Part shown: positions 1 through 42,270 of the stretch, in pieces
How positions within the stretch are numbered: position 1 is the stretch's first letter
Layout of the letters: every line of letters begins with the position of its first letter
Source of the DNA: an uncultured Acidobacteriota bacterium
GTDB lineage: Bacteria; Acidobacteriota; Terriglobia; Terriglobales; Acidobacteriaceae
Length of the DNA stretch: 64,000 bases
Direction of reading: 5' to 3'
Assembly (NCBI GenBank): GCA_963735815.1
Contig: CAVTMJ010000011.1
Location: 89,406-153,405 of the forward strand
Made by a program: the position numbers and the translations under genes
Notes under the pieces: model-generated
Seen by the model: only the letters and a program-made list of their open reading frames with translations
What the model was told of the DNA's origin: nothing
The model's database searches: none

Positions 1-1
1 T

Positions 2-1063: not shown

Positions 1064-1129
1064 TCTTGAGGTCTAAGCTGGCTACGAGGGATACTCTCAT
1101 AGCTGGACAGGCTGATCGTGCTTCCGAGA

Positions 1130-1300: not shown

Positions 1301-1329
1301 TTGCCAATCCCGCTAACTTCCGCGATAAT
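1301..1329 (+). promoter_or_regulatory. candidate sigma70-type promoter of the rpsP operon
   Basis: TTGCCA, 17-nt spacer, GATAAT, about 58 nt upstream of the rpsP ATG (1387). Confidence 0.35.
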
Positions 1330-1386
1330 AATGGTTTGTCTTACCCCTCCCAGAAGGATTAGGAAAGGAAACCAAGTTCCGTGTTA

Positions 1387-1644
1387 ATGATTCGTCTGGC
1401 GCGCACGGGTGCGCGCAAACAACCGCAGTACCGCGTGGTGGTAATCGAGAAGGCGCGGGCGCGCAATGGGCGCTCGGTCGAAGTAGTGGGGACCTACAAT
1501 CCCCGCGGCGCCGCTGCTCATATTGATCTCAAGCGCGATCGCATCGACTATTGGGTTTCCAAGGGCGCGAAGATGTCGGAACGCGTGAGCAAGCTGTTCG
1601 CGAAGCCTTTGCCTACTCCGGTGAGCGCTGGACCTGCCGCTTAG
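1387..1644 (+). CDS. rpsP: 30S ribosomal protein S16
   Basis: MIRLARTGARKQPQYRVVVIEKARARNGRSVEVVGTYNP is a canonical S16 N-terminus. A GGAAAGGAAA purine tract lies upstream. The ORF track also offers GTG 1381. Confidence 0.95.
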   Translation: MIRLARTGARKQPQYRVVVIEKARARNGRSVEVVGTYNPRGAAAHIDLKRDRIDYWVSKGAKMSERVSKLFAKPLPTPVSAGPAA

Positions 1645-1821
1645 GTGAGCCGACCTCAGCGGCTAAAGCCGCTCCAGTATTGCAGACCTTGACGGCTCGA
1701 CTGAAGCCGAGCCCTTTCAAAGCAGAAGAGCTTGGGGCTTTCAACTAGCAAGCAGGTCCAGCTTTTCGGCAAAGCATCAGAGTTTTCTGAGCTTCCCCGA
1801 AGGTTAATTTGGGAGTCGCGA

Positions 1822-2073
1822 ATGAGCGAGCAAGGTGGCGACGCGAAGGTTCTCCTCGAGCACGTGACCAGGGTTCTGGTGGATGCACCCGACCAGGTTG
1901 CAGTGAACCAGGTAGAAGAAGACGGCGAGACGGTGCTGGAGTTAACCGTCGCCGAAAGCGATCTGGGTAAGGTGATTGGCAAGTCCGGGCGCACCGCCCG
2001 TGCGCTGCGAACGCTGTTGAGCGCGGCCGGAGTCAAGGCGAACAAGCGCTACGCGCTCGAGATCCTGGAATAA
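1822..2073 (+). CDS. KH-domain RNA-binding protein (UPF0109/YlqC-like)
   Basis: The GKVIGKSGRTARALRTLL motif (GxxG KH loop), about 84 aa, in the conserved position between rpsP and rimM. Confidence 0.85.
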   Translation: MSEQGGDAKVLLEHVTRVLVDAPDQVAVNQVEEDGETVLELTVAESDLGKVIGKSGRTARALRTLLSAAGVKANKRYALEILE

Positions 2074-2097
2074 AGCTCGCGAATTGCCGGAACGAAG

Positions 2098-2661
2098 ATG
2101 GGCGACGAGTACATCAGCCTGGCTCGCGTCCTGAAAACGCAGGGGCGGCACGGCGAAGTTGCCGTGGAAGTGCATTCCGACGTTCCGGACCGGTTCGTGG
2201 AAGGCATGCGGCTGTTCGCGCTCGATTCGAAAGGCGAACGGCGGCAGTTGAAGGTCGAAGATATCTGGCCGCATAAGGGTCAGGTGGTTCTGAAGTTCGA
2301 AGGGATCGACTCGATCTCGGACGCGGAAACCCTGTTGCGATGCGAATTGCAAGTACCGCAGGCCGAACGTGCGGAACTGGAGCCGGGCTGGACTTACATC
2401 AGCGATCTGACGGGCTGTGTAGTTTTTGACGGCGATCGCGAGATTGGCAGGGTGGAAGGCGTGGAGTTCGGGGCGGGTGAAGCGCCGCTGCTGATCGTGC
2501 GCGGCAAGGCGAAACTGCCCTACGAGATTCCGTTCGCCGAGGCGTACCTGACAGGCGTGGACCTGACGGCGAAGCAGGTCCGGATGCGGTTGCCCGAGGG
2601 GATGCTTGAGGTGAACGCTCCGCTGAGCGAGGAAGAGAAGCGGGAACAGAACAAGGATTGA
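2098..2661 (+). CDS. rimM: 16S rRNA processing protein RimM
   Basis: ISLARVLKTQGRHGEVAVEVHSDVPDRF matches the RimM N-domain and a PRC-barrel-like C-terminus follows. The operon context also fits. Confidence 0.9.
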   Translation: MGDEYISLARVLKTQGRHGEVAVEVHSDVPDRFVEGMRLFALDSKGERRQLKVEDIWPHKGQVVLKFEGIDSISDAETLLRCELQVPQAERAELEPGWTYISDLTGCVVFDGDREIGRVEGVEFGAGEAPLLIVRGKAKLPYEIPFAEAYLTGVDLTAKQVRMRLPEGMLEVNAPLSEEEKREQNKD

Positions 2662-2672
2662 GAAATTGGGTG

Positions 2673-2758
2673 ATTGAGTAATCGGGAAATTGAAAACCGG
2701 CTATCGCGCTGGCCCAGATTCTCAATTACACAATTACTGAATTTCCCAATTACTCAAT
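2673..2758. repeat. imperfect 19-nt inverted repeat (REP-like, AATTAC-rich) spanning the rimM-trmD spacer. The right arm covers the trmD start codon.
   Basis: The left arm ATTGAGTAATCGGGAAATT (2673-2691) is complementary to the right arm AATTTCCCAATTACTCAAT (2740-2758) at 18 of 19 positions. CAATTAC also occurs three times in 2722-2755. Confidence 0.6.
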
Positions 2759-3557
2759 GCTGGCTGATCTGGTAACAATTTTTCCGGACTTCTTCCGCGG
2801 GCCGCTGGACTACGGAATTCTTCGGCGGGCCCGGGAAGCGGGACTGGTCGAAGTTAAGGTCCACGACCTGCGGGAGTTTACCCGCGACAAGCATCGCACG
2901 GTGGATGACCGCCCATTTGGCGGCGGCGAAGGCATGGTGCTGAAGCCGGAACCGATCTTTGAATGTATTGAGGAGCTGAAGGTAGCGTCGCGCGACGAAC
3001 GCGTCGGGAAGACGGCGAAGCAGTCGGTGATCTTGCTCTCCGCGCAGGGGCGCCGGCTCGATCAGGGACTGGCTCAGGAATTAGCCGGGCTGGAGCGGAT
3101 CGTGCTGATCTGCGGGCGGTATGAGGGCGTGGATGAGCGCGTGAGCGAGCATCTGGCGGATCGAGAGATTTCGATTGGCGATTACGTGCTCAGCGGCGGC
3201 GAAATGGGTGCGGCGGTGATCGTGGATGTCGTCACGCGGTTGATTCCAGGCGCGGTCGGCAATGAAAATTCCACGCGGCAGGAGTCATTTTCGGCTTCGT
3301 CTGAAGTAGTGGCCGGCGATGCTCCGAGTTCAACCTGCGTTTCCGGCGGGTTGCTGGATTATCCGCATTACACGCGGCCCGCTGAATTTCGTGGGATGGC
3401 AGTGCCCGAAGTGCTGGTGAATGGCAATCATGACGAGATCCGGCGCTGGCGGCGCAAAACAGCTTTACAGAAGACGCTGCGCAATCGACCGGACTTGATT
3501 GATGCGGCGGACTTGAGCGAGGAAGATCGAAAGTTGCTGGCGGCAATGAAAAAGTAG
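2757..3557 (+). CDS. trmD: tRNA (guanine37-N1)-methyltransferase TrmD
   Basis: The sequences TIFPDFF...YGILRRA, DDRPFGGGEGMVLKPEP, ICGRYEGVDERV and GDYVLSGGE are canonical TrmD motifs. Confidence 0.95.
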   Translation: MLADLVTIFPDFFRGPLDYGILRRAREAGLVEVKVHDLREFTRDKHRTVDDRPFGGGEGMVLKPEPIFECIEELKVASRDERVGKTAKQSVILLSAQGRRLDQGLAQELAGLERIVLICGRYEGVDERVSEHLADREISIGDYVLSGGEMGAAVIVDVVTRLIPGAVGNENSTRQESFSASSEVVAGDAPSSTCVSGGLLDYPHYTRPAEFRGMAVPEVLVNGNHDEIRRWRRKTALQKTLRNRPDLIDAADLSEEDRKLLAAMKK

Positions 3558-5223: not shown

Positions 5224-6060
5224 TTGCGGCGCAGTCTTCCTGAGCGCTGGATGATACAGATTATGAAGCTTTCACTTGCGCTTCCACAGCGCGGTCGGCG
5301 AACATCGGAGAAAGACATCCCTGTGCCGGTCAAAACCAAGTCCGCGAATCTTTCTGCGTCGGCCGCGAAGCTGCGCCTGTTGAAGCGGCTCCGCTGCACG
5401 CTACGGTATGAGAAGAAGGCCTGGGATGCTGGAGCCCGGCTGGTCGCCGGCGTGGACGAGGTAGGTCGCGGATCTCTGTTTGGCGCGGTGGTGGCCGGCG
5501 CGGTGATCCTTGATCCCAGGTACCGGATTCGTGGGCTGCGCGACTCGAAGCTTCTGCCTGCGGAGCGGCGAGAGGTGCTGGCGGAGCGGATCCGCGAGCA
5601 TGCGATTGCGTGGGCGGTGGCGGCGGTGGACGCGGCGCGCATCGATCAGATCAACATCTACCAGGCGTCGCGAGTGGCGATGCGCATGGCGGTGTCGCAA
5701 CTCACCCCGGCAGCCGATTATCTGCTGATCGACGCTCTCAAGCTGGACTGCGAACAGGAACAGCGCGCCTTGATTCATGGCGATGCGCTCTCGGCATCGA
5801 TCGCGGCGGCATCGATTCTGGCAAAGGTGGAGCGCGATCAAATGATTCGCGCATGGGATCCCGTATTCCCCGTGTACGGGCTGGCTTCGAACAAGGGCTA
5901 CAGTACTCCGCATCACCTGGCCGCGCTGCGCGAACATGGGCCCTCACCGTTGCACCGGCAGTCGTTCGCACCCGTGTGGAACGCTCCGGTACCGCAGGAG
6001 GTATTGAGCTTCATGCTGGAAGAAGCGGAGGCGGAAGCGGTTGAGGAAGTGGGGGCGTAG
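5224..6060 (+). CDS. rnhB: ribonuclease HII
   Basis: VAGVDEVGRGSLFGAVVAGAVIL, RDSKLL, GDALSASIAAASILAKVERD and NKGYSTPHHLAAL are canonical. The start is uncertain (alternative ATGs at 5251 and 5263). Confidence 0.9.
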   Translation: MRRSLPERWMIQIMKLSLALPQRGRRTSEKDIPVPVKTKSANLSASAAKLRLLKRLRCTLRYEKKAWDAGARLVAGVDEVGRGSLFGAVVAGAVILDPRYRIRGLRDSKLLPAERREVLAERIREHAIAWAVAAVDAARIDQINIYQASRVAMRMAVSQLTPAADYLLIDALKLDCEQEQRALIHGDALSASIAAASILAKVERDQMIRAWDPVFPVYGLASNKGYSTPHHLAALREHGPSPLHRQSFAPVWNAPVPQEVLSFMLEEAEAEAVEEVGA

Positions 6061-6195
6061 GGGTTTCGAGCTTTGAGCTTTGAGCGAAAGCTAGTAGGGT
6101 CTGCGTAGTTCATGGTTAATCACGTAAGAATCCTCATAAATCTGCACAGCAAACTGGGAATTTCATCCCAGGACTGCTGGCTCGATACTCTGCAA

Positions 6196-6274
6196 GCTCG
6201 CAACTCGCAGCTCATAGCTCAGCTCGAGGCTCGAGGCTCGAGGCTCGTAGCTCGCAGCTGGCAGTTCGTAGCTT
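6196..6274. repeat. degenerate tandem 8-mer array (GCTCGNAG-type) with three perfect GCTCGAGG units at 6222-6245
   Basis: Read directly: gctcgcaactcgcagctcatagctcagctcgaggctcgaggctcgaggctcgtagctcgcagctggcagttcgtagc. A separate GAGCTTT x2.5 run sits at 6068-6085. Confidence 0.7.
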
Positions 6275-6285
6275 AGAATCTCTGC

Positions 6286-7032
6286 ATGCCTCGTTTACTC
6301 TGCGTCACTGCACATCCAGACGATGAAGCTGCGGCGTTTGGCGGGACCCTGCGGCTCTATCACGATCGCGGTTCGGAGATTTATCTGATTTGCCTTACGC
6401 CGGGTCAGGCCGCAACCCATCGGGGGACGGCAAAGAACGATCAAGAGCTTGCCACCATTCGGAGGAAGGAACTGGCGGCTTCCTGCGAGATCCTGGGGAT
6501 CGATCGCTGGGAGGTGCTGAATTACGCGGATGGCCAGCTTCATCGAGTGGATTTACAACGTGTGGTCGGAGATCTGGTGCGGCATATACGGGAGTTTCGC
6601 CCGCACATCGTGCTGACCTTTGGCCCGGAGGGAGCGTTTACGGGACATACCGATCACACCATGGCCTCGGTTTTCGCGACGCTGGCTTTCCAGTGGGCAG
6701 GACGGAGCAATCGCTACTCGGATCAACTCATTGATGGAGTAGGACCCTATCGCTCGCAAAAGTTGTACTACGTGACCGCGAACTTCGTGCTGCCGGACCG
6801 GCCGCCAACCGCGCCTCCACCGATCACCACCATGATTGACATCGGGGAGTTGATGAAGACAAAGATTGAGGCTTTTGCGGCGCATACTACGCAGGCTCCG
6901 GTATTTCCTATCGTGCGAGACACGATCCTGTCGCGCGGGCCGCAGGAAGTGTTTCACTTGGCGGCCAGGTCGCAACCCGGAAAGCTCATTCTGGAAACTG
7001 ATTTGTTTGCTGGACTAGACTTCGAGGACTAG
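6286..7032 (+). CDS. PIG-L/LmbE family N-acetylglucosaminyl deacetylase
   Basis: LCVTAHPDDEAAAFGGTL and the HTDH motif are typical of PIG-L-family zinc deacetylases. Confidence 0.85.
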   Translation: MPRLLCVTAHPDDEAAAFGGTLRLYHDRGSEIYLICLTPGQAATHRGTAKNDQELATIRRKELAASCEILGIDRWEVLNYADGQLHRVDLQRVVGDLVRHIREFRPHIVLTFGPEGAFTGHTDHTMASVFATLAFQWAGRSNRYSDQLIDGVGPYRSQKLYYVTANFVLPDRPPTAPPPITTMIDIGELMKTKIEAFAAHTTQAPVFPIVRDTILSRGPQEVFHLAARSQPGKLILETDLFAGLDFED

Positions 7033-15220: not shown

Positions 15221-15256
15221 ATTTTTACCGAGAAGAAGCTGCCTGCAATTGCTTCG

Positions 15257-15640
15257 TCACTTCTGTGCGATGCGGTTCTTGCGAATTCCATCCAATACAA
15301 CAAAGCTACTGGTGCCAAAGCACCCCACGGCGATCAGCGCTGCTACCTGGTAAAGGTCTGAGCCCAGGCGCAGCCGGTCGGCGAACAGAGCACATAGCGC
15401 GCACACAATTCCGATGATATTGAGCCACTGTGGAACTCGTATCTGCGCGGGAGATGCCTGGCGCAGGCGCCGCTGAAACAGCACAGCGGCGAGCCCGATG
15501 GCAGCCAGCACCACCGCTGCGATCGGACTGTGAAAGGCGGCGCCGCGGGTGTAAATCACGACTAAAGCGATGGCCAGTATGAGCAGGCCGGCAGCGATCA
15601 CCGTCCAACGGCGAGACGTATTCGTCGAAAGTTCAGGCAA
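15257..15640 (-). CDS. small hypothetical membrane protein (start uncertain)
   Basis: Four hydrophobic helices. The long ORF (to 15805) would overlap the LuxR gene, so I chose an internal TTG at 15640. Confidence 0.4.
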   Translation of the reverse strand: MPELSTNTSRRWTVIAAGLLILAIALVVIYTRGAAFHSPIAAVVLAAIGLAAVLFQRRLRQASPAQIRVPQWLNIIGIVCALCALFADRLRLGSDLYQVAALIAVGCFGTSSFVVLDGIRKNRIAQK

Positions 15641-15716
15641 GTGGGTTCTATAGGAAGACGAACCCCATTGTAGACAGAGTGCCGCCGAGTTGCGAGTGCG
15701 AAGATGCCGGGTGCCA

Positions 15717-16427
15717 TCAGTCCGTGCCCGGCAGCCATTCTGCGGCGCGATGATCGCCGTGGTGGACAGCGTATAGCACCAGTTCCACTCGGGTGGAGAT
15801 GCCAAGCTTATCGAAGATCCGAAACAGGTATTTCTTCACCGTATGCTCACTGAGGGCCAGTTCCTGGGCGATCTCTCGATTGGAAAGACCTTCCGCTACC
15901 AAGGCCACAACCTGTTCCTCGCGTGGAGTGACGAGCGCTTGCCCGTCCGCATTGACCACCCTCAACGATGGCACCTGGGAAACCAGGTCGATCAGATAGT
16001 CGATCTGCTGCGCGGTGGCCCAAATCTGGCCGCGATGAACCACTTGTATGCACTTGCAGAGCGCCCGGAATGGAGATATCGAAAAGCAGAACAGGCCCCG
16101 AGCGCCGGAACGGAACGCATTCACGGCCAGTTCCCGGTCCACGGATTCCAGCACCAGAACCTTCGCCACCTTTGGAAATGTGATGTGGATTCGACGGAGT
16201 ACAGCCATGTCCTGCCAGGTTGATCCGTTGCCATTAGAGGCCAGCAGAACTACGTCGTGAGCGGAATTGGCCAGAAGTTTGAGGACCTCTTCCGTCTCCA
16301 GGACACAAGAGTCGACCTTGAGTTCAGGGCGCCGACGGAGGGCCCTGGTTAGAAGTTGCAGTTGCATTTGGCTGGAATCCGCGACCAGCACCCGGATCGG
16401 ACTACTGATAGGTTCTTTAATACTCAT
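15717..16427 (-). CDS. LuxR/FixJ-family transcriptional regulator with a degenerate (pseudo-)receiver domain
   Basis: The C-terminal HTH is TPREEQVVALVAEGLSNREIAQELALSEHTVKKYLFRIFDKLG. The N-terminal REC-like fold has A at the phospho-acceptor position (DVVLLASNG versus DLILLDLNMPG in NarL). Confidence 0.85.
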   Translation of the reverse strand: MSIKEPISSPIRVLVADSSQMQLQLLTRALRRRPELKVDSCVLETEEVLKLLANSAHDVVLLASNGNGSTWQDMAVLRRIHITFPKVAKVLVLESVDRELAVNAFRSGARGLFCFSISPFRALCKCIQVVHRGQIWATAQQIDYLIDLVSQVPSLRVVNADGQALVTPREEQVVALVAEGLSNREIAQELALSEHTVKKYLFRIFDKLGISTRVELVLYAVHHGDHRAAEWLPGTD

Positions 16428-16921
16428 GGCGCATGGCGAGTGCGATTTGCACAATGAGGCGATTGTAGGGACCATATCGATACAAGTCATGGTCAGTAGT
16501 CACCAGTTTTGGTGACGGTTCCCACATCCGACGAGTGGAATGACAATGTGAAAAAGCTGGATGTTGGGATGAAATGCTGAAACCGCCGATGCCGGGTCCT
16601 ACTTCGCAACAGCTACACAGAGGAGCAGTTAGCAATCGCTCCAATTCCGATGCAGGGTGCTGGATGAAGAATTTCGCAGTCGGGCAAGTCCACGAAAGTA
16701 GCGCATACCTGAGTAGTTAACCCGGCAGGAGTTTCCGTCTTGCTCTTGCGGCCTTCCACAGAATGCTAAATGCAATCGGAAGGGTACCCTGCGCTCGGAA
16801 GGCTAGCTCGTGTGCCATAGGAACAAGGATGCCCACCCACGTAGACAACACAGGCTATGTCTTGCTGAAAATGGCGAGTGGCCGTAGGTTGCAGAAGCAC
16901 GGTAATGGAAAGCGGCGCGGT

Positions 16922-32286: not shown

Positions 32287-32838
32287 TCACTTCTTCTGCA
32301 TGGGCACTTCGATCGGCTCCAAGCCTGCCTTCTTGAGCTGCCCATTGAACGCGGGAAGCTCTTTGTTTCGCATGCCAGCCCAACGGGCCAGTTGCTCGTC
32401 GAGCGCGCGTTCCACCTCAGAGAACGTCGCGACCGCCTGCGTAGTCGGCGCGGCATCGGCCGAATCGACGATCGCCAGCAGAGTGCTCAATCCACTGTTC
32501 AACCGAGCCAGTCCTCGCCCCGCCGGCGTGCTCAAGTATTGAGCGCCGTATCCACCGGCCGATCCCTCCACCTCGACAAGTTTCCTGTCGAGTTCGCCGA
32601 CCTGCGATTGAAGGTTCGCGGTAGACGAAATCTCCTTCAGGCCTTTCCGAATCCTCTGGACCTCAGTTAACGCATCGAAATCGCGCTGCATGGCTTCCAC
32701 AATTTTCATTTCCATTTCAAACTGGGCTTTCAAGCCTTCGGGAGAAGTTTTGACGCGCGGGTCCATCTTGACTGTGAGCGGTTGCGCCAGAGTCTTTCCG
32801 CCCGCGGTGAGCTTGATCGAATAGGTTCCCGGCAACAC
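32287..32838 (-). CDS. C-terminal segment of the BNR/sortilin-like glycosidase (separated from 32730..35444 by a -1 frame change in a CCG run)
   Basis: LPGTYSIKLTAGGKTLAQPLTVKMDPRVKTS is the typical C-terminal domain of these roughly 1050-aa acidobacterial proteins. Read in this frame, the upstream sequence gives ALDRDYPISAIVGETPLYPLGAPV. Confidence 0.7.
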   Translation of the reverse strand: MLPGTYSIKLTAGGKTLAQPLTVKMDPRVKTSPEGLKAQFEMEMKIVEAMQRDFDALTEVQRIRKGLKEISSTANLQSQVGELDRKLVEVEGSAGGYGAQYLSTPAGRGLARLNSGLSTLLAIVDSADAAPTTQAVATFSEVERALDEQLARWAGMRNKELPAFNGQLKKAGLEPIEVPMQKK

Positions 32839-35444
32839 CGGAGCGCCCAGTGGATAGAGAGGGGTTTCGCCAACGATTGCCGAAATCGGGTAGTCGCGAT
32901 CCAGCGCGGCGGCGGCGGATAGTGCAGATCCCAGACAAAGCGATGCATGCCGGCTTCGGTGGAAAGTTTGCGTTCGGGTCGAATCCAGTACGTCGGCACG
33001 TTGATGTCTTTTGCGTCCAGCACGTCGGGCTTGTCGGAACTGGAAAACCGGCGCACGAGTTTGCCAGACGAGTCGACAATTTCCAAAGTGACATCGCCCG
33101 AGACCGCCGACTTGAGCCAGTAATCCAACGTGGCCCCGTCTGGCGGATTTTGACCTGCCGGGATGTCAGGCGGGAGTGGTGTATCGGTTCCATTATCGCG
33201 CCGTACCCGGTAGGTAAGCTGCGGCGCGAAAAGGTGTGCCTCGGAATCTGCGATCTGCGGGTTGAGTTGCCGCAATGGCGTGACGTTGTCCAGAATCCAG
33301 AACGAGCGCCCGTGAGTTCCCACCACCACATCGTCGTTGTGTACTACCAGATCTCGAATCGAGCTTGCCGGAAGATTCAGCTTCAACGACTGCCAGTGGT
33401 CTCCATCATCAATCGAGAAGTAGACGGTTCGCTCGGTGCCGGCGAACAACAGGCCCTTGCGGACCGGATCTTCACGTACGCTGTTCACCGGATCATTGCC
33501 GGCGATTCCGGTTGTGATCAGTTGCCAGGATTTGCCTCCGTCGTGGGTGCGGTAAATGTACGGACGCAAGTCGTCCAGCCGAATCCGATTCACGGCGGCA
33601 TACACAGTGTTCGCGTCAAAATGGGATGCATCCAGCTGCGCGATTTTGCTCCACGGCGTCAGGTTGGGAGGCGACACGTTCTGCCAGGACTTGCCGGCAT
33701 CGCGCGTGATGTGGATGAGCCCATCATCGGTTCCGGCCCAGATCAGATTCCTGTCTTTGGGAGACGGAGCGATGGAGTAGATCACTCCGCGATGCTTGCC
33801 CTTGGCCGGATCCGCGTCGACAAAGGGCCCAAGGGTCGCGGGAACTCCGGGGTCTTCTCGGGTCAGATCGGGGCTCACCGTTTGCCAACTGTTGCCGCCG
33901 TCCGTGGTTTTGAAGAGAACATTGGAGCCGAGATACAGCGTGTGCGGATCAGCAGGTGAAAATATCAGGGGAGCGGTCCGGTTGAATCGATACTTGCCGG
34001 TGCGCAGCACCACCGGAGAGACATCTTGCGTCTGACCCGTAGTGCGATTGAACTTCGTTGCCTTGCCGCCATAAATGATGTTGGGATCCAGTGGGTCCGG
34101 CGCCACGTACCCGTATTCTTCCACGCCCACCGGATACCAATCGCGAAACGTGATCTCGCCGAAGTCGCTGCGACTCGCGATACCGACGCTTCCGCTTTCC
34201 TGCTGGCCGCCGTAAACCCAATACGGAAACTGATTATCGGTGATGACATGGTAGAACTGCGCCGTGGGCTGGTTGTACCAGGAACTCCACGTTCCTCCGC
34301 CATTCACGCTGATCACAACTCCCTGGTCGCTGGCCAGCGCGATAATCTGCGGGTTCTCGGGATTGATCCACACCGTGTGATAGTCATCTCCGCCAGGAGC
34401 GCCTCGGATCGCGGTGAAGGTATGTCCGCCATCGGTCGAGCGATAGAAGGAGGTGTTGGGCACGAAGATGGTATCCGGTTCGTTGGGATGGACGCGAATG
34501 AAAGCGAAGTCATCTCCTCGACCGCAGACGCGCTCCTCGGAATTGACGTGCGTCCAACTCTCCCCGGCATCCTCCGACCGATACACGCCGCCCGCGCTCT
34601 GGGATTGCACCATCGCGTACATGCGCTTGGGATCACTCGGAGCAATGGCAATTCCGATGCGACCAAGATCGCTGCCCGAAGGCAAGCCCTTGGTTAACTC
34701 ACGCCAGGTCGTTCCGCCATCCTCTGACTTAAAAAGGCCGCTGCCGGCCGCGCCGTAGGAGTTCCCCGTCGTCCAGGGTGGCCGGCGAGAGGCCCATAGC
34801 ACGCCATAAACGGTCTGTGCGTTTCGAGGATCAAATGCGAGGTCAGCTCCACCGACGTCATCATTTCTGGATAGGACCTTCTCCCAGTTCTCCCCGCCAT
34901 CCAGCGATCGGAAGATTCCACGCTCAGCATTCGGGCCATAGGGATGGCCAACTGCCGCGACAAAAAGCCGGTTCGGATCCTTCGGATCCACGAGGATTGC
35001 CGCGATCTGTTGGGCATCGCGCAAGCCGAGATGCTTCCAGGTTTTGCCGCCATCAGTGGATTTATAAATACCGTCTCCGACCGAGAGATCGGGACGTCGC
35101 AATCCTTCGCCGCTACCGACGTAGATGATTTCGGGATTTGAAGGCGCGAGGGCGAGGGTACCGATAGAGCCCGTAGGCTGATCATCAAAAATCGGACTCC
35201 AGGTGTGACCGTAGTCGGTTGTCCTCCACACGCCACCGTTGTTGGGAGCCATGTAGAAAACATTCGGCTTGCCGGGAATGCCCGTGATCGCGATCGTTCG
35301 CCCGCCGCGAAATGGGCCGATCATGCGCCAACGCATCCCCTGGTAAAGCTCGGGGCTCAAGGATTGCGCCGACGCCGCAGGCAGACTGAACCAGCAAACA
35401 AGAAGGACAAAGAAATGCCGTAGGATTCGGGGAAGAGCGATCAC
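32730..35444 (-). CDS. exported BNR/Asp-box repeat, sortilin/VPS10-like (GH74-like) glycosyl hydrolase family protein, main body
   Basis: A signal peptide (MIALPRILRHFFVLLVCWFSLPAASAQS) and many Asp-box repeats (STDGGKTW, SLDGGENW, SEDGGTTW, SEDAGESW, STDGGHTF, VNGGGTW, TTDGGNSW, TRDAGKSW, THDGGKSW). Confidence 0.85.
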   Translation of the reverse strand: MIALPRILRHFFVLLVCWFSLPAASAQSLSPELYQGMRWRMIGPFRGGRTIAITGIPGKPNVFYMAPNNGGVWRTTDYGHTWSPIFDDQPTGSIGTLALAPSNPEIIYVGSGEGLRRPDLSVGDGIYKSTDGGKTWKHLGLRDAQQIAAILVDPKDPNRLFVAAVGHPYGPNAERGIFRSLDGGENWEKVLSRNDDVGGADLAFDPRNAQTVYGVLWASRRPPWTTGNSYGAAGSGLFKSEDGGTTWRELTKGLPSGSDLGRIGIAIAPSDPKRMYAMVQSQSAGGVYRSEDAGESWTHVNSEERVCGRGDDFAFIRVHPNEPDTIFVPNTSFYRSTDGGHTFTAIRGAPGGDDYHTVWINPENPQIIALASDQGVVISVNGGGTWSSWYNQPTAQFYHVITDNQFPYWVYGGQQESGSVGIASRSDFGEITFRDWYPVGVEEYGYVAPDPLDPNIIYGGKATKFNRTTGQTQDVSPVVLRTGKYRFNRTAPLIFSPADPHTLYLGSNVLFKTTDGGNSWQTVSPDLTREDPGVPATLGPFVDADPAKGKHRGVIYSIAPSPKDRNLIWAGTDDGLIHITRDAGKSWQNVSPPNLTPWSKIAQLDASHFDANTVYAAVNRIRLDDLRPYIYRTHDGGKSWQLITTGIAGNDPVNSVREDPVRKGLLFAGTERTVYFSIDDGDHWQSLKLNLPASSIRDLVVHNDDVVVGTHGRSFWILDNVTPLRQLNPQIADSEAHLFAPQLTYRVRRDNGTDTPLPPDIPAGQNPPDGATLDYWLKSAVSGDVTLEIVDSSGKLVRRFSSSDKPDVLDAKDINVPTYWIRPERKLSTEAGMHRFVWDLHYPPPPRWIATTRFRQSLAKPLSIHWALRCCREPIRSSSPRAERLWRNRSQSRWTRASKLLPKA

Positions 35445-35593: not shown

Positions 35594-36814
35594 CTATAGG
35601 ACGCGCTCGTGCCTGTAGCCCGACTCAGCCAGCGCCTCGAGAATGCGCTGAATCTGATCCTTGCCTCGGGTCTCGAGCGTCACGTCAATCAGGGTATCGC
35701 CCAGGCTGACGCCGTAGTACGCCCGATCAAATTGCAGTTCGACGATGTTGGCATGGTGGGCCGCGATGATTTTCGTAAGCTGGTGCAGCGAGCCGGGACG
35801 ATCCGATAAATGAATCTGCAAACGCACCAGCCTTGCATCTTTCACAAGGCCACGCTGGATAATTCGTGACAGCAGCGTGACATCGATGTTGCCACCACAC
35901 ACCAGGGCGACTGTCTTCTTGTTCCTGAGCTTTGCTTTGCGATGAAGGAGGGCGGCAACGGCGGCCGCGCCCGCACCCTCGGCCAGCATCTTTTCGCGTT
36001 CCAAAAGAGTGAGAATTCCACTCGCAATTTCTTCTTCCTCAACCGCCACCACATCGTCCACGTACTTCTCGATGAGCTGCAAGGTGCGCTCGCCGGAACG
36101 GCGAACGGCGATGCCATCGGCAATGGTGGGATTCGATGCGATCACGGTAGGTTGGTGAGCTTTCAGAGCTTCCAGCATCGAAGGCATCCGCGCGGCCTGC
36201 ACACCGATAATGCGGACCGCAGGCCTCAACTCTTTGATCGCGCAGGCAATTCCGCTGATTAAACCGCCGCCGCCGATCGGGACAACCACTGCCTCCAGAT
36301 CGGGAACCTGTTCCAGCAATTCGAGACCGAGCGTGCCTTGCCCGGAAATCACCGCGGGGTCATCGAACGGATGAATGAAGGTGAGATGCTCAGTCTCAGC
36401 CAAGCCACGGGCGTGCTCATAGGCTTCATCGTAGCCATCACCGTGCAACACGACGTGCGCGCCATAACCCTTCGTGGCATTCACCTTCACGAGCGGCGTC
36501 ATTACCGGCATCACGATCTTCGCGGCGATCCCGTTGCCTTGCGCGTGGAAAGCCACGCCCTGGGCATGATTTCCGGCGCTGGCCGCGATGACGCCGCGTT
36601 CTTTGTCATGCGCGCTGAGCGTCAGAATCTTGTTGAGCGCTCCGCGTTCCTTGAACGATCCTGTCCGCTGGAGATTTTCAAGTTTCAGGTACACGGGCTG
36701 GCCGCTGATCTCGGAAATACTGGGGGACAGCGGGCATGGTGAGAAATAGATGGCCCCAGCGATCCGGCCGCGAGCTTCGCGGATGCTATTCAGGCTTACC
36801 TCAGGTTTGGACAT
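35594..36814 (-). CDS. ilvA: threonine ammonia-lyase (threonine dehydratase) with one C-terminal ACT-like domain
   Basis: The PLP site LQRTGSFKERGALNK, ASAGNHAQGVA and GGGGLISG, followed by a regulatory ACT-like tail. Confidence 0.9.
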   Translation of the reverse strand: MSKPEVSLNSIREARGRIAGAIYFSPCPLSPSISEISGQPVYLKLENLQRTGSFKERGALNKILTLSAHDKERGVIAASAGNHAQGVAFHAQGNGIAAKIVMPVMTPLVKVNATKGYGAHVVLHGDGYDEAYEHARGLAETEHLTFIHPFDDPAVISGQGTLGLELLEQVPDLEAVVVPIGGGGLISGIACAIKELRPAVRIIGVQAARMPSMLEALKAHQPTVIASNPTIADGIAVRRSGERTLQLIEKYVDDVVAVEEEEIASGILTLLEREKMLAEGAGAAAVAALLHRKAKLRNKKTVALVCGGNIDVTLLSRIIQRGLVKDARLVRLQIHLSDRPGSLHQLTKIIAAHHANIVELQFDRAYYGVSLGDTLIDVTLETRGKDQIQRILEALAESGYRHERVL

Positions 36815-37125
36815 GTTGTACCGTTCAATATTGAGATTTGATCACCGCACAGCGACTGGTCAGAAAACTTATCGCAAAAATGCAAACCCACCATCCATTG
36901 CCTCTGGTGGTGGGCGTTCAGAACTTTGAGTAATTGCGTGTCGATCAGCTCATTGTTCCCCAGGCAACCGAGGCGGGCGAATCCATCGGAATGGAAATCC
37001 TAATTCGACGCGCTCGATTGGTGGGCATAGGCAAAAGCTTCCTTGAATAAGGCCATATCGTAGCACATGCACACGGAATGACGGAGCATACGGGAGGGCC
37101 TGCAGTTCGAGGTGGAAGGGCGTCG

Positions 37126-38022
37126 CTATGTCAGGCGCGTCGATACAAACCCGGCGGCCCAGGCAGGCTGCCAGTTCAAAGCGGTCGACGGTTTTGGTGA
37201 TCCTTCTGGCTGTACGACCGTGGGCTGCGGAAATTGGCCGGCCTCTGCCGAGCCCGAACTGTAGTTGATGTAACTGCCGTGTCCAAACTCCCAGGAGTTC
37301 GGAAGAATTGGTGTCTTCGACAGGTTCGCAGGCTGGTCCGGAGGAGTCGGCCCGGTGCGCCCCAATGCGGCATGCCAGTAAGGATCTCCGCGCGTGATGA
37401 TCCCGGAGAGCGGATTGCCCAGCGGGAAAGCCCACTTCAAAACTTCATCGCATTGGGAGGCCAGCACGGAGATCTTGCCAACGCGCGCAGTGGCGTCCCT
37501 GTATTCGTCGGTCAGGCAGTTGTCATCGATGGCAGCCGCCATCAACATGAGTGCGCTTACTGGCATGGAGGATGGCAGTCGTCGAATGGTCTCCAGTACC
37601 ACCCGCGCGCCGAGGCTGTGCGATGCAAACGAGATTCTGGCCGCGCCGGCAAAGTTGGCGCCAAGATAGGCAGCCAGCAGTTGCCCGCTCTTAATCGCCT
37701 CGTTCCCTTCGACCGGATAATCGAGAAAAGGGACCCATCGCGAATCGCCGGGCCACAACACTCCGATGAACAGGCCATTTGGTCCATGCTGCACCCACTT
37801 CGCCCAGTGGGACAGATTGCCGATTCCATCAGCGCGGTTGACATGAAAACCATGGGTCGCAAGCAGCACGTCCCTGCCCTGAATGGACCGCACCATCTCG
37901 GGCGCAAGCGGAGTCGACGGATTTGGATTTTGCTGCGCCTCGGTGCGAACCACAACATCATCGGCGCTGGCGACCGGGTTGCCGCCAACCGAATCCGCGC
38001 GGAGATCGATAAAGTAAGTCAC
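37126..38022 (-). CDS. alpha/beta hydrolase, DUF900-like serine hydrolase (no signal peptide)
   Basis: The ordered motifs are LLATHGFHVN, WPGDS, FASHSLGARV (nucleophile elbow), MAAAIDD and FGHGSY. The GTG start lies 3 nt after the upstream stop. Confidence 0.7.
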   Translation of the reverse strand: MTYFIDLRADSVGGNPVASADDVVVRTEAQQNPNPSTPLAPEMVRSIQGRDVLLATHGFHVNRADGIGNLSHWAKWVQHGPNGLFIGVLWPGDSRWVPFLDYPVEGNEAIKSGQLLAAYLGANFAGAARISFASHSLGARVVLETIRRLPSSMPVSALMLMAAAIDDNCLTDEYRDATARVGKISVLASQCDEVLKWAFPLGNPLSGIITRGDPYWHAALGRTGPTPPDQPANLSKTPILPNSWEFGHGSYINYSSGSAEAGQFPQPTVVQPEGSPKPSTALNWQPAWAAGFVSTRLT

Positions 38023-38025
38023 CGA

Positions 38026-38739
38026 TCACTTGCTCCAGGACTGAGCAGCCTTGGCTCCAGCTTGAATCGCGCTCGACAGGTCCTTCGCGATCGGCGCCAG
38101 CGGAGTCGCTAAGAGTCCGGCGAGAACCGACCTCACGACTTCGCTGCCATTCGAGAAGAAGGCGTTGCCGACAACGATCCGTCCTCCAAGAATCGCAAGA
38201 AACATGGCAATGAAAACTGCCAGCAACTTGGCGCTATTCCGATAACGTTGGTCGGCCCGTTGATACCCCTGATCGAGCAACGCGCTCAGCAGAAGATCAA
38301 AACGGCCGTACACGTCTGTTTCCTGCGGTGAAAGCGCCGTGGAAGAACCCATTTTCGTTGCGATGCCCGCAAGCACATCCTTGTCGACTCCTGTGGCCGC
38401 CGCCATGTGGTTCGCGTTGCCCGGCGTCAGGTTCAACTTGATCAAGGCCTTGGCAACCGACTTTTGGTCGCCGAGCAACATCCCATTCAGCCAATTCGCG
38501 CGCAGCGTCCGCAAGGCCGATGCAAGGTTGAGAGCGGCATCTGGGGAAATATTCACGGAGTTAGGGGGGATCAACTTTGAGATGACACCCTTGATGTCTC
38601 CAAATCCGCGATTTGATATGCCTCCTCCAAAGCCTTTGGTGGCATCGACCACTCCATAGGCCGCGGTCCCAAGACTGCCGATGGCCAAGACAACTTTAGG
38701 AAGATCCAGATTCGATTGCGAAGTGGCAATTTCGAACAC
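38026..38739 (-). CDS. hypothetical membrane protein of unknown family (partner of the DUF900-like hydrolase)
   Basis: 237-aa ORF with hydrophobic helices LPKVVLAIGSLGTAAYGVV, LLAVFIAMFLAILGGRIVV and VLAGLLATPLAPIA. It is translationally coupled to the downstream gene. Confidence 0.6.
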   Translation of the reverse strand: MFEIATSQSNLDLPKVVLAIGSLGTAAYGVVDATKGFGGGISNRGFGDIKGVISKLIPPNSVNISPDAALNLASALRTLRANWLNGMLLGDQKSVAKALIKLNLTPGNANHMAAATGVDKDVLAGIATKMGSSTALSPQETDVYGRFDLLLSALLDQGYQRADQRYRNSAKLLAVFIAMFLAILGGRIVVGNAFFSNGSEVVRSVLAGLLATPLAPIAKDLSSAIQAGAKAAQSWSK

Positions 38740-39048
38740 GCTTCACCTCTCTAACATTGGTTGAGCCCTTGCGGAAATTCCCACACTGTTGCGAGGGTTT
38801 GCTCCGAAGGATTTGTCACTCCGATAGTGCGAGTTTCAAGCTTCTCGAATCATAAGCACTCGGAAGAACCGAAATTCTCTGTCCGAAACGACCTCCCAAA
38901 CCCCCAATGGCTTTCCTTCGACGACGGTTGGCTTCGCTACCATGGAATTTTCTTTTTATTAACATCTTTTGAGATACACAGTTTGCTTTCTTTTTCTTTC
39001 TATTTGTGGTGTAATCTTTCGGGTTCCGCGCGTGCTTGAGGGGGGACT

Positions 39049-42000
39049 ATGAACGTGCCACGGATTTCGCTGTGTCTGCTTGTTTGTCTGGTGGCCTTTT
39101 CGTCCGCATTTGCCCAGGTCGACACCGGCACCATCGCCGGCAGTGTTCATGACAGCCAGGGGGCCGGCGTACCGTCCGCCTCCGTGACGTTTGTGGAGAC
39201 GTCCACCAACGCAAGTATGAAAACCAAGACGGATGGTTCGGGCGACTTCGCATCGCCTCCTTTGCGGCCGGGCAGTTACAAGGTGACCGCGGAAGCTCCC
39301 GGATTCAAAACCCAGACCCGGGGCACGCTCGTCGTCCGTGTCCAAGATAGGCTGCGCCTCGATTTCGAAATGGCAGTCGGGTCAGTGTCGGAGAACGTCG
39401 TGGTGACGGCAGAAACTCCCACCATACAGACCGACACTTCCTCTCTGGGAGAAGTAGTTTCCACCAAAGAGATGACACAATTGCCTCTGAATGGACGCGA
39501 CTACATTCAGTTGGCAACACTGACTACGGGGGTGGTCCGCACCAGTTCCGGTACCAACGGGAATACGGGTGGAAGCAGCACGGGTGGGCAAAACAGTTTT
39601 GTCGCTAACGGCACGCGCGGAACGCTGAACAATTTTCTGCTGGATGGTTTGGATAACAATTCCAACGACAACGGCGGCGTGGTTCTCCGCACCAACGTCG
39701 ATGCAATTCAGGAATTCAAGCTACAGACCAATACCTACTCGGCCGAGTTCGGCCGTAGCGCAGGTGCTGTCGTCAATGCCATCACAAAGTCGGGGACGAA
39801 TCAGTATCACGGCAACGTTTTCGAATTCTTCCGGAATTCCGCACTGGACGCGCGCGACTACTTTGAGGATCCAGCCACGAAGAAAGCTTCATTCAAACAG
39901 AATCAGTTCGGCGGGACGCTGGGTGGCCCGATCGTGAAAGACAAGCTGTTCTGGTTTGGCGACTATCAAGGTACGAGTATCCGGAGGCCCCTCACTTGGG
40001 TATCTGTCGTTCCTACTCCGGAGGAACGGGTCGGAAACTTTTCGGCGGCGGGGGAGCCCGTTATTTACGATCCGACCACCGGAATGCCATTCGCCGGGAA
40101 CATCATTCCGACGCCCCGCATTGACCTTATCAGCCAGGCCTTCATGAACCTCTACCCCGATCCAAATCAAACGGCGGGTTCGGGTGGCAACTTCATCATT
40201 TCCCCCATCGAGCAAGATCGGATCGACCAGGGAGATGGCCGGCTGGACTACAACCCATCGCAACGGGACCAATTTTTCGTGCGCTATTCCATGAGTGGAA
40301 GGACCGATGTTCGCCCCGCACCTCTCCCGGGAATGGCGAATGGTGGCGACTCGAGTACTGGCAATGGATTTGAAGATACTAAGGGCGCATCGCTGGGCTA
40401 TACCCGTTCGTTTACGCCGAGGACTGTGAATGAAGTTCGCGTCGGCTTCAACTACGTGCACGTCCGGCGCGGCGTGCCCGCAGGCGGCAATGTGTTACCC
40501 CCACCCGAACTTCGGGTGCCAGGCGTGCCCGATGATGCTCGTGTCAACGGCTTAACCCTGTTTGCGCCCCGGGGATTCCGCCGCGTAGGAGATCCCAGGT
40601 TCGCCCCCACCATTCTGGCCAGCCAGGAACGCCAGATCAACGATGTACTCACTCTGGTCCGAGGTGCGCACACCATCAAGCTGGGCGGTGAAATTCGCTG
40701 GAGCCAGTTCAACATCTCGCAGGAGGCCTCGCCGCGAGGAGGATTCAACTTCAGCGGTCAGTTCACCCGAAATGGGCAGGGAACAGGCAGCAGCCTCGCC
40801 GACATGCTGTTAGGTTTGCCGATATCGGCCGGGATTTCCACGGTGATTGAGATGGGCAATCGGCAGCACGTTCCCGCATTGTTCGCGCAGGACGACTGGA
40901 AGGTAACTCGGCGCCTCACGCTGAATCTGGGCCTTCGGTATGACTACTTCTCACCCATCGTTGAAGTCAATAACCGGCAGAGCAATTTCAACTATGCGAC
41001 GGGAACCCTGATCCAAGCTGCCCAGAATGGCGCATCCCGCGCGCTCGTCAATGCCGACAAGGCAAACTTTTCTCCGCGCATCGGATTCGCCTTCACTCCG
41101 GGAGGCAATTCCGACACCGTGATTCGCGGCGCGTACGGCATCTTCTTCAGCGGTCAGGAAATTCGTACGGCGGCACCGCTCCAATTGGCTTATAACTTGC
41201 CCTTCTTCTACGAACCGAGCTTCGTCAGTGACGGCGTAACGCCAGTGATCACCGTCTCGCAAGGGTTCCCTACCCTGGATCCGAGTCTAGCGGTGAACCC
41301 GGGCGTTACCAGTGTCGACCCCAATCTCCACACCCCGTACTACCAGAGTTGGAACCTCGCGGTGCAGCGCGCGTTGCCGGGAGCGATCAGCATTGAAGTC
41401 GCCTACGCCGGATCGAAAGGTACCCACCTGCAAGCCGTCACCGATCGGAATCAGGTTCCCGTGCCGGGTCCGGGCGATATCCAGCCCCGCCGCCCTTATC
41501 CTTTTTATGGTGGATTCACTTCCATCCAGAATCTGGGCAGTTCGAACTACAACTCGCTGCAGGTAAAAGGCGAGAAGCATCTAAGCCACGGATTGTATTT
41601 CCTGAGTGCCTTCACCTACAGCAAAGCCATCAACGACCTTCCGGAAATCTGCTGCGCGGCCCCCTTCCCGCAGAACAGCTACGATATCCCTGCGGAACGC
41701 GGTCCCGCCGACTTCGATCAGCGGCTTCGCTGGGTATTCAGCTTCGACTACGAAATCCCATTCGGCGGGAGCAAATCAAAGTTCAGCAATCGCGCTGTCG
41801 ACGCCCTGCTGGGTGGATGGCACGTAGGTGGCATCTACACTTTGGCGAGTGGCTTCCCGTTTTCTCCCTTGTTGGGCACGGACCCATCGAACACGGGTAC
41901 CCAAGTCTCGGTGCGTCCCAATCAAATCAGCAATGGCAATCTCCCGCGCGACCGCCGCACCAAAGACATGTGGTTCGATATCAACGCATATCCGATTCCC

Positions 42001-42270
42001 GATGGCACTCAGTACTTCTTCGGTAATGCAGGGCGAAACAGTCTGACCGGACCCGGCTCAAATGTCTTTGACGGCTCGCTGCGCAAAGAGTTCGCCATCA
42101 CCGAGAGGCAACGTCTGGAATTCCGTACAGAGTTCTTCAACGCTTTCAATCATCCGAACTTCGCCCAACCGGACAACTTCGTCGATGACGGACCCGGCGT
42201 GGCGGGCACGATTACGTCGATAGCCACACCCATGCGCCAGATTCAATTTGGATTGAAATACTCGTTTTGA
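39049..42270 (+). CDS. TonB-dependent receptor with an N-terminal carboxypeptidase-regulatory-like domain
   Basis: A signal peptide, then QVDTGTIAGSVHDSQGAGVPSASVTFVETSTNASMKTKTDGSGDFASPPLRPGSYKV (CarboxypepD_reg), a plug region and a C-terminal beta-barrel ending QIQFGLKYSF. Confidence 0.88.
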   Translation: MNVPRISLCLLVCLVAFSSAFAQVDTGTIAGSVHDSQGAGVPSASVTFVETSTNASMKTKTDGSGDFASPPLRPGSYKVTAEAPGFKTQTRGTLVVRVQDRLRLDFEMAVGSVSENVVVTAETPTIQTDTSSLGEVVSTKEMTQLPLNGRDYIQLATLTTGVVRTSSGTNGNTGGSSTGGQNSFVANGTRGTLNNFLLDGLDNNSNDNGGVVLRTNVDAIQEFKLQTNTYSAEFGRSAGAVVNAITKSGTNQYHGNVFEFFRNSALDARDYFEDPATKKASFKQNQFGGTLGGPIVKDKLFWFGDYQGTSIRRPLTWVSVVPTPEERVGNFSAAGEPVIYDPTTGMPFAGNIIPTPRIDLISQAFMNLYPDPNQTAGSGGNFIISPIEQDRIDQGDGRLDYNPSQRDQFFVRYSMSGRTDVRPAPLPGMANGGDSSTGNGFEDTKGASLGYTRSFTPRTVNEVRVGFNYVHVRRGVPAGGNVLPPPELRVPGVPDDARVNGLTLFAPRGFRRVGDPRFAPTILASQERQINDVLTLVRGAHTIKLGGEIRWSQFNISQEASPRGGFNFSGQFTRNGQGTGSSLADMLLGLPISAGISTVIEMGNRQHVPALFAQDDWKVTRRLTLNLGLRYDYFSPIVEVNNRQSNFNYATGTLIQAAQNGASRALVNADKANFSPRIGFAFTPGGNSDTVIRGAYGIFFSGQEIRTAAPLQLAYNLPFFYEPSFVSDGVTPVITVSQGFPTLDPSLAVNPGVTSVDPNLHTPYYQSWNLAVQRALPGAISIEVAYAGSKGTHLQAVTDRNQVPVPGPGDIQPRRPYPFYGGFTSIQNLGSSNYNSLQVKGEKHLSHGLYFLSAFTYSKAINDLPEICCAAPFPQNSYDIPAERGPADFDQRLRWVFSFDYEIPFGGSKSKFSNRAVDALLGGWHVGGIYTLASGFPFSPLLGTDPSNTGTQVSVRPNQISNGNLPRDRRTKDMWFDINAYPIPDGTQYFFGNAGRNSLTGPGSNVFDGSLRKEFAITERQRLEFRTEFFNAFNHPNFAQPDNFVDDGPGVAGTITSIATPMRQIQFGLKYSF

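Follow-up and report, generated by a model that had tools for sequence, protein, structure and literature searches.

The coupled gene pair and its distribution

The window analysed here is a 64,000-nucleotide stretch of contig CAVTMJ010000011.1 from an uncultured Acidobacteriota bacterium. Its minus strand carries, at positions 37126-38739, two adjacent genes encoding a membrane protein, here called P1, and a putative serine hydrolase of the alpha/beta type, here called P2. An earlier note, made from the letters of the window, had described the two as an insulated, translationally coupled cassette. The features that define the pair are the following.

38026-38739, minus strand: P1 gene, 237 residues, GTG start (from the list of open reading frames, ORFs)
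37126-38022, minus strand: P2 gene, 298 residues, GTG start (from the ORF list)
38020-38036, minus strand: coupling junction (read off the sequence)

Read in the direction of the genes, the junction comprises GGAG at 38036-38033 within the 3' end of the P1 gene, the P1 stop codon TGA at 38028-38026, the triplet tcg, and the P2 start codon GTG at 38022-38020. The GGAG, still within the coding end of P1, stands 10 nt ahead of the P2 start, and P1 itself is preceded by a Shine-Dalgarno motif, GAGG, 6 nt upstream of its start (38749-38746). The two minus-strand frames, the 3-nt gap and the GTG start of P2 are thus as previously described, and P1 also starts with GTG. Homologous proteins form 1379 clusters for P1 and 1428 for P2 at 90% identity, and both are therefore real genes and not chance ORFs.

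The pairing is invariable. A P2 homologue follows P1 directly and on the same strand in 87 of 87 loci, and the same order was found in four further loci, namely the Sinorhizobium fredii conjugative plasmid pSfreNXT3a, Mesorhizobium sp. B1-1-8, Rhizobium ruizarguesonis and a metagenome contig, to give 91 of 91. The distance from the P1 stop to the P2 start is mostly between -4 and +10 nt (84 related loci), in agreement with the coupled unit proposed at the outset, and the co-occurrence of the two genes in other genomes is equally clear. No third conserved gene belongs to the unit: all-against-all clustering of the flanking ORFs of the 84 loci returned P1, P2 and their out-of-frame shadows. Comparison of the four alphaproteobacterial loci revealed a single shared stretch of 61 residues, located in proteins upstream of P1 in two of them, both with peptidoglycan-binding domains. 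The pair is present as a single copy in 82 of the 84 loci, and orphan arrays were not observed. The mean pairwise identity amounts to 50.5% for P1 and 50.4% for P2, and the pairwise identities of the two proteins correlate with r = 0.87. Strict co-inheritance and equal constraint on P1 and P2 are accordingly firm observations. A description of this strict coupling was not found in the literature searched.

A genome scan with one peptide pattern, in which each species was represented by one genome, identified P1 relatives in at least 333 genomes, a lower bound set by the use of a single pattern. Most carriers are Acidobacteriota (Terriglobales, Bryobacterales and Holophagaceae); others are Thiobacillus, Nitrosomonas, Burkholderiaceae, Methylobacter, Pseudomonas and deltaproteobacterial metagenome-assembled genomes (MAGs). 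The 91 loci span Acidobacteriota and Alpha-, Beta-, Gamma- and Deltaproteobacteria. The spread over these five lineages is patchy, with about 45-50% identity between phyla, and fits occasional horizontal transfer across phyla. For the clade of the window itself, the comparison of sequences is consistent with vertical inheritance of the chromosomal pair, because the gene order is kept in the two closest genomes and the divergence resembles that of the flanking genes: identities are 93.7/83.7% for P1, 96.3/88.3% for P2, 96.3/87.3% for the neighbouring TonB-dependent receptor and 98.5/97.3% for the neighbouring ilvA-like gene.

Sequence, predicted topology and fold of the two proteins

P2 is a member of DUF900 (PF05990), the family named in the earlier note: the Pfam match reaches 31.4 bits at a cut-off of 20.5 (E 1.7e-7), and most P2 homologues carry a precomputed PF05990 hit. 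Weaker Pfam hits were obtained for DUF726 and DUF676, two other alpha/beta-hydrolase families, and the search returned no delivery domain (PAAR, MIX, LXG or RHS). The function of DUF900 was listed as unknown in a 2024 survey (PMC11878206), and one relative has been characterised, the phospholipase cinquedea (bioRxiv 10.64898/2026.06.10.730825). P2 is a new subfamily within this known, uncharacterised family.

The motifs of P2 are HG at residues 57-58, SHSLG at 134-138 with S136 as nucleophile, the aspartate D192, and FGHGSY containing H248. Conservation was evaluated over 78 homologues with a mean pairwise identity of about 50%: D192 is invariant (78/78), H248 is lacking in a single homologue (77/78), and HG and S136 are kept in at least 97%. 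Thus three of the motifs first pointed out (HG, SHSLG and FGHGSY) are present and conserved, whereas the fourth, MAAAIDD, gave way to another residue. Its aspartates, D166/D167, are retained in 66/78 homologues and were rejected as catalytic acid, since the invariance of D192 makes the latter the better candidate. Likewise H217 (46/78) was rejected as catalytic base in comparison with H248. The predicted triad of P2 is S136-D192-H248; its putative catalytic residues are conserved in the order Ser-Asp-His, and to judge from this conservation the protein is very probably enzymatically active. In two loci (L023:6600-7491 and L054:6674-7542), it should be noted, tblastn recovered the P2 homologue as two overlapping segments, which could reflect a frameshift, a pseudogene or an assembly error.

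The AlphaFold2 model of P2 (predicted template-modelling score, pTM, 0.84; mean predicted local distance difference test, pLDDT, 77) displays the strand order of alpha/beta hydrolases, with S136 placed right after the strand 129-135. A Foldseek search of this model against the PDB returned esterases and lipases only, among them PETases, cutinases, pancreatic lipases, Legionella PlaB and the hornet venom phospholipase A1 4qnn, together with the thioesterase TesA and a feruloyl esterase. The probability was 1.00 for PETases, cutinases and lipases at modest E-values of 3e-4 to 7e-3, and the highest query TM-score, 0.40, was obtained for 4qnn. A profile search of PDB sequences revealed no close relative, the weak hits being the esterase MGS0156 and lipase A. 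The likeliest activity of P2 is that of a phospholipase A, or else of a related acyl-esterase. Its most hydrophobic 19-residue window reaches a Kyte-Doolittle value of 1.22, and P2 therefore has no membrane helix. Inspection of the N-terminus by eye recognised no signal peptide. As P2 has neither a hydrophobic segment nor a recognised signal peptide, it should be cytoplasmic.

For P1, family-averaged Kyte-Doolittle profiles locate three hydrophobic segments at residues 13-31 (TM1), 172-190 (TM2) and 200-218 (TM3), with about 135 soluble residues between the first and the second. This matches the arrangement previously read from the single sequence, one N-terminal helix, a soluble middle of about 130 residues and two C-terminal helices. 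Averaged over the family, the net charge behind TM1 comes to +2.7 and that of the C-terminus to +2.0; the N-terminus has -0.6 and the loop 194-204 has -0.2. From these values a topology is predicted in which the N-terminus faces outwards and both the helical domain of about 135 residues and the C-terminus face the cytoplasm. No signal peptide was recognised by eye. The AlphaFold2 model of P1 is all-alpha (pLDDT 78), and a 56-residue helix (138-193) extends from the middle domain into the second membrane segment. Conservation clusters in three regions: residues kept in at least 90% of the homologues include G24, A26, D32 and K35 in and around TM1, W83, Q92, K97, D142, R146, D148, Y166 and N168 in the middle domain, and P213, P216, K219 and D220 of the motif PLAPxAKD after TM3.

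P1 could not be placed in any described family, as the earlier note had already stated, and no housekeeping family was among its matches. Searches against Pfam, NCBIfam, PADLOC and PHROGs gave nothing above threshold, a profile search of PDB sequences gave nothing meaningful, and Foldseek found no significant match for the model (best E 0.18 in the PDB and 0.22 in BFVD). P1 is thus an undescribed family without a recognisable fold relative. It comprises 612 clusters at 50% identity, and the 150 best listed are mostly 220-260 residues long and free of domain fusions. Two candidate relationships were rejected. Sub-threshold similarity to holins covers TM2 (Phage_holin_3_7, 15.3 bits at a cut-off of 25.4, E 0.021; PHROG 217, E 0.11), and no P1 homologue occurs in 50,697 phage records or in IMG/VR, so that P1 was not assigned as a phage holin. 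The likeness to MotA, ExbB and TolQ is limited to the topology of one plus two membrane helices with a cytoplasmic domain: hhalign of P1 against MotA of locus L002 returned a probability of 0.2%, Foldseek matches to TolQ/ExbB had E-values of 1.4-3 at TM-scores of about 0.2, and clustering of the flanking ORFs identified no conserved MotB/ExbD-like partner near P1. Two loci contain tandem, diverged P1 paralogues in front of a single P2 (L055:5092-5772 and 6001-6657; L061:5160-5858 and 5974-6666); the copies in L055 are 45% identical to each other. These tandem copies therefore point to a distinct P1' subtype in one Acidobacteriaceae genome and one Bryobacterales genome.

Genomic surroundings and the role of the pair

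The pair is bordered in the window by the following features.

35594-36814, minus strand: ilvA-like gene of a pyridoxal phosphate (PLP) enzyme, neighbour downstream of P2
36875-36915, minus strand: GC-rich terminator-like hairpin followed by the U-run UUUGCAUUUUU (from RNA folding)
38740-39048, no strand assigned: divergent intergenic region of 309 nt, common to the P1 and TonB-dependent receptor genes
39049-42270, plus strand: TonB-dependent receptor gene with carboxypeptidase-regulatory-like N-terminus, divergent to P1

The two neighbours had been named correctly from the outset, and the non-coding flanks, put at about 310 nt, measure 311 nt (36815-37125) and 309 nt (38740-39048). Only the upstream flank is richer in A and T, with a GC fraction of 0.48 at 38600-38999 and 0.56-0.62 around it; the cassette has the GC content of its flanks and of the surrounding chromosome. 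Promoters are presumably located in 38740-39048. A scan of the cassette region for consensus promoters and terminators stayed at background level and gave no promoter in this interval. An A/T-rich hexamer followed by CC, GAATTTCC, is found at 38780-38773 (region 38773-38782), about 35-55 nt upstream of the P1 start, and similar hexamer-CC sequences (AAATTTCC, TAAAATCC and alike) are present in the diverged loci L001, L002, L008, L009, L011, L014 and L017. The recurring hexamer is possibly the -10 box of a promoter of the unit's own. The hairpin lies about 210 nt past the P2 stop and about 60 nt ahead of the ilvA-like start. Folding of 36872-36935 (minus strand) gave -21.5 kcal/mol with z = -2.4 relative to shuffled sequences, a structure missed by the simple consensus scan, and it could end the P1-P2 transcript before ilvA. 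Rfam has no match in or around the cassette. The rest of the window, judged by eye on the N-terminal 50 residues of every ORF, appears to consist of ordinary chromosomal genes (rhamnose-nucleotide synthesis, BNR-type glycosidase, TonB receptors, ArnT-like transferase). Separately, the last approximately 70 residues (32730-32950) of a 904-residue BNR/sortilin-like ORF (32730-35444, minus strand) are rich in Arg and Ser and look out of frame, pointing to a frameshift or to a mistake in sequencing close to the 3' terminus of that gene.

Neighbouring genes in the related loci were called by a greedy longest-ORF rule in flanks of ±6 to 8 kb. Immediate neighbours are mixed, mostly metabolic and encoded on either strand: accC (9/83), GFO/IDH oxidoreductases, multicopper oxidases, peptidases and permeases. 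In about 13-15 of the 84 loci (L063, L072, L077, L044 and about ten others of Acidobacteriaceae type) the pair lies directly downstream of pepP(M24)-accB-accC on the same strand. This adjacency is probably synteny within one lineage; accB and accC encode acetyl-CoA carboxylase subunits, and a tie to fatty-acid metabolism is conceivable. The search for defence neighbours covered ±6 kb with these crude gene calls and used PADLOC models dating from 2023. About ten or fewer of the approximately 310 genes at positions ±1 to ±3 match PADLOC (at most about 3%), all generically as helicase, reverse transcriptase or ATPase. P1 and P2 themselves match none of the 5027 models of PADLOC-DB 2.0 at E <= 1. 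Secretion families, including those of the type VI secretion system (T6SS), are absent from the per-gene Pfam listings of 11 loci and from the 25 commonest families in every set of neighbours. Enrichment near defence islands or secretion loci, by which the earlier note would have judged the unit, was consequently not found. Neither P1 nor P2 has a homologue in the phage records or IMG/VR, and among 72,556 plasmids both match the same single record.

Individual loci differ from this general picture, and each of the suggestive placements (SIR2/RHS, flagellar, integrase, luxI) is unrepeated among the loci. In L007 the pair is framed by a SIR2 gene together with an nSTAND/WD40 gene and by the gene of a giant RHS/YD protein (1-3269 and 15237-16792), and in a Thiobacillus MAG (L026:71-2476) an RHS protein with an Endonuclease_NS_2 toxin tip is encoded 3.5 kb upstream. 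In L002/L003 (8001-9649) the pair is embedded in a flagellar cluster, between fliD-fliS-like genes and flagellin/flgK-flgM-flgI-flgH; L017 has upstream sequence in common with these loci. Elsewhere the pair lies beside integrases. In Mesorhizobium sp. B1-1-8 (CP083956.1; L089:5555-8619) luxR- and luxI-type quorum-sensing genes are located directly upstream, the called luxI end overlapping the called P1 start. Nearby lie two lysozyme genes, one of the GH25 and one of the phage type, along with a relaxase-like gene and one for a phospholipase C (PLC)-type phosphoesterase, in a region resembling an integrative conjugative element. A protein with a peptidoglycan-binding domain is encoded directly upstream of P1 on the S. 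fredii plasmid (L088:5899-7629) and on the metagenome contig (L091:6012-6833), with a C1 peptidase and a di-haem peroxidase among the nearby genes.

In our reading, to which we give not quite an even chance, P1 and P2 are the two halves of an obligate complex: a lipolytic hydrolase residing in the cytoplasm is held at the inner face of the inner membrane, and kept under control, by P1. P2 would be a cytoplasmic lipase-type serine hydrolase of DUF900 with the triad described above, and P1 a three-helix inner-membrane protein whose large helical domain is directed towards the cytoplasm. P1 would keep P2 next to the membrane on its cytoplasmic side and probably govern how P2 reaches the lipid, acting as a tether or gate in the form of a separate protein, where many other membrane lipases bear an anchor of their own. 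The two would be co-expressed from the upstream intergenic region of the unit, up to the terminator-like hairpin downstream, and the complex may be regarded as a membrane-tethered phospholipase A divided over two proteins. As to its role, a controlled turnover or remodelling of the membrane's lipids has a slight edge over a weapon or a suicide switch directed at phages, because of the native composition, the housekeeping neighbourhoods and the near-absence from mobile elements.

The roles originally envisaged, a membrane-directed effector with a tether or immunity protein or a conflict and defence module, find no support in the context, be it neighbours, PADLOC or phage searches; the accompanying remark that nothing in the window decides between roles was correct, and it is the wider data that lean towards an obligate membrane-hydrolase complex. 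Abortive infection, in which P1 senses a phage or damages the membrane, or P2 is unleashed on the inner membrane, and the cell dies before phage release, appears unlikely to us. A cytoplasmic phospholipase would be an obvious suicide effector, the distribution is patchy across phyla, one locus adjoins SIR2 and nSTAND/WD40 genes while others lie near integrases or the conjugative-element-like region, and the layout of an enzyme with a small multi-pass membrane protein recalls validated systems, among them the HAD-like hydrolase with a transmembrane protein in P4 satellites (PMC9122126). These points are set against the lack of any PADLOC match for either protein, the few and generic matches among otherwise metabolic neighbours, the absence from phage genomes with one plasmid record, and the native composition and gene order kept in close relatives. 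A search of literature from 2020 on yielded no defence pair of an alpha/beta hydrolase and a transmembrane protein, and in two 2026 defence-discovery papers hydrolase, lipase and esterase occur only in entries of the reference lists. About equally doubtful is a hitherto unrecognised, self-contained membrane self-destruction or immunity switch outside defence islands, in which P1, with a new fold and conserved polar residues within its membrane helices, would sense a membrane or infection cue and release a cytoplasmic phospholipase A onto the inner leaflet. An interbacterial effector-immunity pair, with P2 as delivered lipase toxin and P1 as membrane immunity protein, we consider improbable. 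It is common for a lipase effector to be encoded beside a partner of its own, bacteria are killed from outside by the DUF900-type enzyme cinquedea, two loci have RHS toxins at a distance of a few kb, two loci have tandem diverged P1 copies, and lysozyme and peptidoglycan-binding genes occur near some rhizobial loci. However, P2 has neither a recognised signal peptide nor a delivery domain, no T6SS or other secretion family surfaced in the neighbour surveys, and the pair is nearly always a single copy. An immunity role for P1 is further disfavoured because P1 is as conserved as P2 and does not show the rapid divergence typical of immunity genes. The bulk of P1 is moreover predicted to be cytoplasmic, whereas the lipase immunity proteins of Tle/Tli systems act in the periplasm.

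Two further alternatives concern what P1 does for P2 and what P2 cleaves. More improbable still than the effector-immunity pair is a helper function in export or folding, with P1 as a holin-like channel or membrane foldase that releases or matures a leaderless hydrolase working outside the cytoplasm. The sub-threshold holin similarity over TM2 would agree with this proposal, as would the general knowledge that foldases dedicated to a lipase are all-helical proteins anchored in the membrane whose genes accompany that of the lipase, and other DUF900 proteins bear an N-terminal anchor or lipoprotein signal (PMC11878206). Yet the holin hits fall below the cut-off and cover one hydrophobic helix only, P1 is far larger than typical holins, neither gene was found in phages, P1 has no match to the lipase chaperone family, and its helical domain is predicted to be cytoplasmic. 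The same complex acting on a non-lipid substrate, such as a thioester, a peptide, an acyl-homoserine lactone or a polymer ester that P1 would deliver or sense, is a slim prospect, between abortive infection and the effector-immunity pair in likelihood. The substrates of alpha/beta hydrolases are hard to predict (PMC11878206; bioRxiv 10.64898/2026.06.10.730825), cutinases, TesA and a feruloyl esterase are among the Foldseek matches, the Mesorhizobium pair directly follows luxR-luxI, and conserved polar residues within the helices of P1 might line a conduit or make up a binding site. In opposition, the family member nearest to P2 among those characterised has phospholipase A activity and an identical nucleophile motif, the weaker Pfam and PDB sequence hits are of the lipase type, and the luxI adjacency occurs in one locus only.

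Several observations weigh against the proposed tethered-lipase complex or soften it. The hydrophobicity peaks of TM1 and TM3, 1.58 and 1.47, are borderline for membrane helices, and the conserved small and polar residues in these segments (G24, A26, D32, P213, P216) suggest that P1 is more than an anchor. The structures were predicted as monomers only, and a contact of P1 with P2 is presumed. The DUF900 match spans residues 44-197 of P2 only, equivalent to positions 13-169 of the 232 in the profile; residues 197-228 are modelled with low confidence, and H248 is assigned from sequence conservation. A lipid substrate is suggested by family resemblance, in a fold whose substrates are poorly predictable. 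A constitutively cytoplasmic phospholipase would be dangerous to its host, which suits a suicide switch as well as lipid remodelling, and the patchy occurrence in five lineages fits an accessory, transferable function.

With 612 clusters and a presence in at least 333 species-level genomes, P1 is a sizeable new family that is absent from Pfam, NCBIfam, PADLOC and PHROGs, and its invariable coupling to a DUF900 protein provides a concrete starting point for the function of DUF900. A membrane partner combined with a lipolytic hydrolase is an already known kind of layout. If P2 is indeed a phospholipase tethered in trans, the pair would represent a new bacterial means of controlling a dangerous lipid-cleaving enzyme, with consequences for membrane homeostasis in Acidobacteria, a group abundant in soil and genetically little studied. 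The pair is directly testable, as it is present in the culturable rhizobia S. fredii NXT3 (pSfreNXT3a), Mesorhizobium sp. B1-1-8 and Rhizobium leguminosarum.

Comparison with known systems

The lipase effectors of the T6SS (Tle families) belong to DUF2235, Lipase_3, DUF3274 and PLD and are linked to VgrG, Hcp, PAAR or a T6SS cluster. An assignment of P1-P2 as a Tle/Tli pair was rejected, given that P2 hits only DUF900, DUF726 and DUF676 and that no T6SS family is found among the neighbours surveyed. P1 was likewise rejected as an immunity protein of the Tli type, which is periplasmic or a lipoprotein, in view of its three hydrophobic segments, the lack of a signal peptide recognised by eye and its predicted cytoplasmic bulk. 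Rst_Hydrolase-3Tm, an anti-phage system of P4-like satellites, combines a HAD-like hydrolase with a transmembrane protein (PMC9122126). It resembles P1-P2 in consisting of two genes, for a hydrolase and a small transmembrane protein; P2 differs in being an alpha/beta hydrolase and not a HAD protein, and no PADLOC model, including that of this system, matches.

Closer to P2 by family is cinquedea, a secreted bactericidal phospholipase A of Haloferax larsenii with demonstrated activity; DUF900 is carried by 69% of its archaeal homologues, and its triad is Ser163/Asp231/His275 (bioRxiv 10.64898/2026.06.10.730825). Compared by description, the two have the Ser-His-Ser-Leu-Gly motif and the order Ser-Asp-His in common, and the nearest solved structure of cinquedea, 4QNN, is also the entry that gives P2 its highest query TM-score. 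Cinquedea is mostly archaeal, possesses a 30-residue signal peptide and is a single-gene unit (bioRxiv 10.64898/2026.06.10.730825). Unlike this secreted enzyme, which has no partner, P2 has no recognised signal peptide and is always paired with P1. Rhizobial DUF900 proteins feature an N-terminal transmembrane helix or a lipoprotein signal (PMC11878206). They are like P2 in passing the family cut-off and in the alpha/beta-hydrolase core with an extended beta-sheet, and unlike P2 in providing the membrane anchor or signal themselves, whereas P2 has the separate membrane partner P1.

A dedicated partner protein is known from the lipase operons of Pseudomonas and Burkholderia, where Lif (PF03280) acts in the periplasm on the secreted lipase and is encoded downstream of it. 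These operons parallel P1-P2 in coupling a lipase gene to a membrane-anchored, all-helical, dedicated partner. P1 is unlike Lif in its three membrane segments, its predicted cytoplasmic domain and the upstream position of its gene, and it gave no hit to Lipase_chap (PF03280) at E <= 1. P. aeruginosa PlaF is a membrane-tethered phospholipase A with a periplasmic catalytic domain. PlaF and Legionella PlaB, unlike the pair, have the enzyme and its anchor or regulatory domain built into one polypeptide, and they share only the fold with P2, no sequence-level relation having been found (Foldseek E about 2.5e-3, TM-score 0.3). Both are alpha/beta-hydrolase phospholipases A that act on their own or host membranes and are restrained by anchoring or oligomerisation, and they provide the nearest model for how P1 and P2 may work together.

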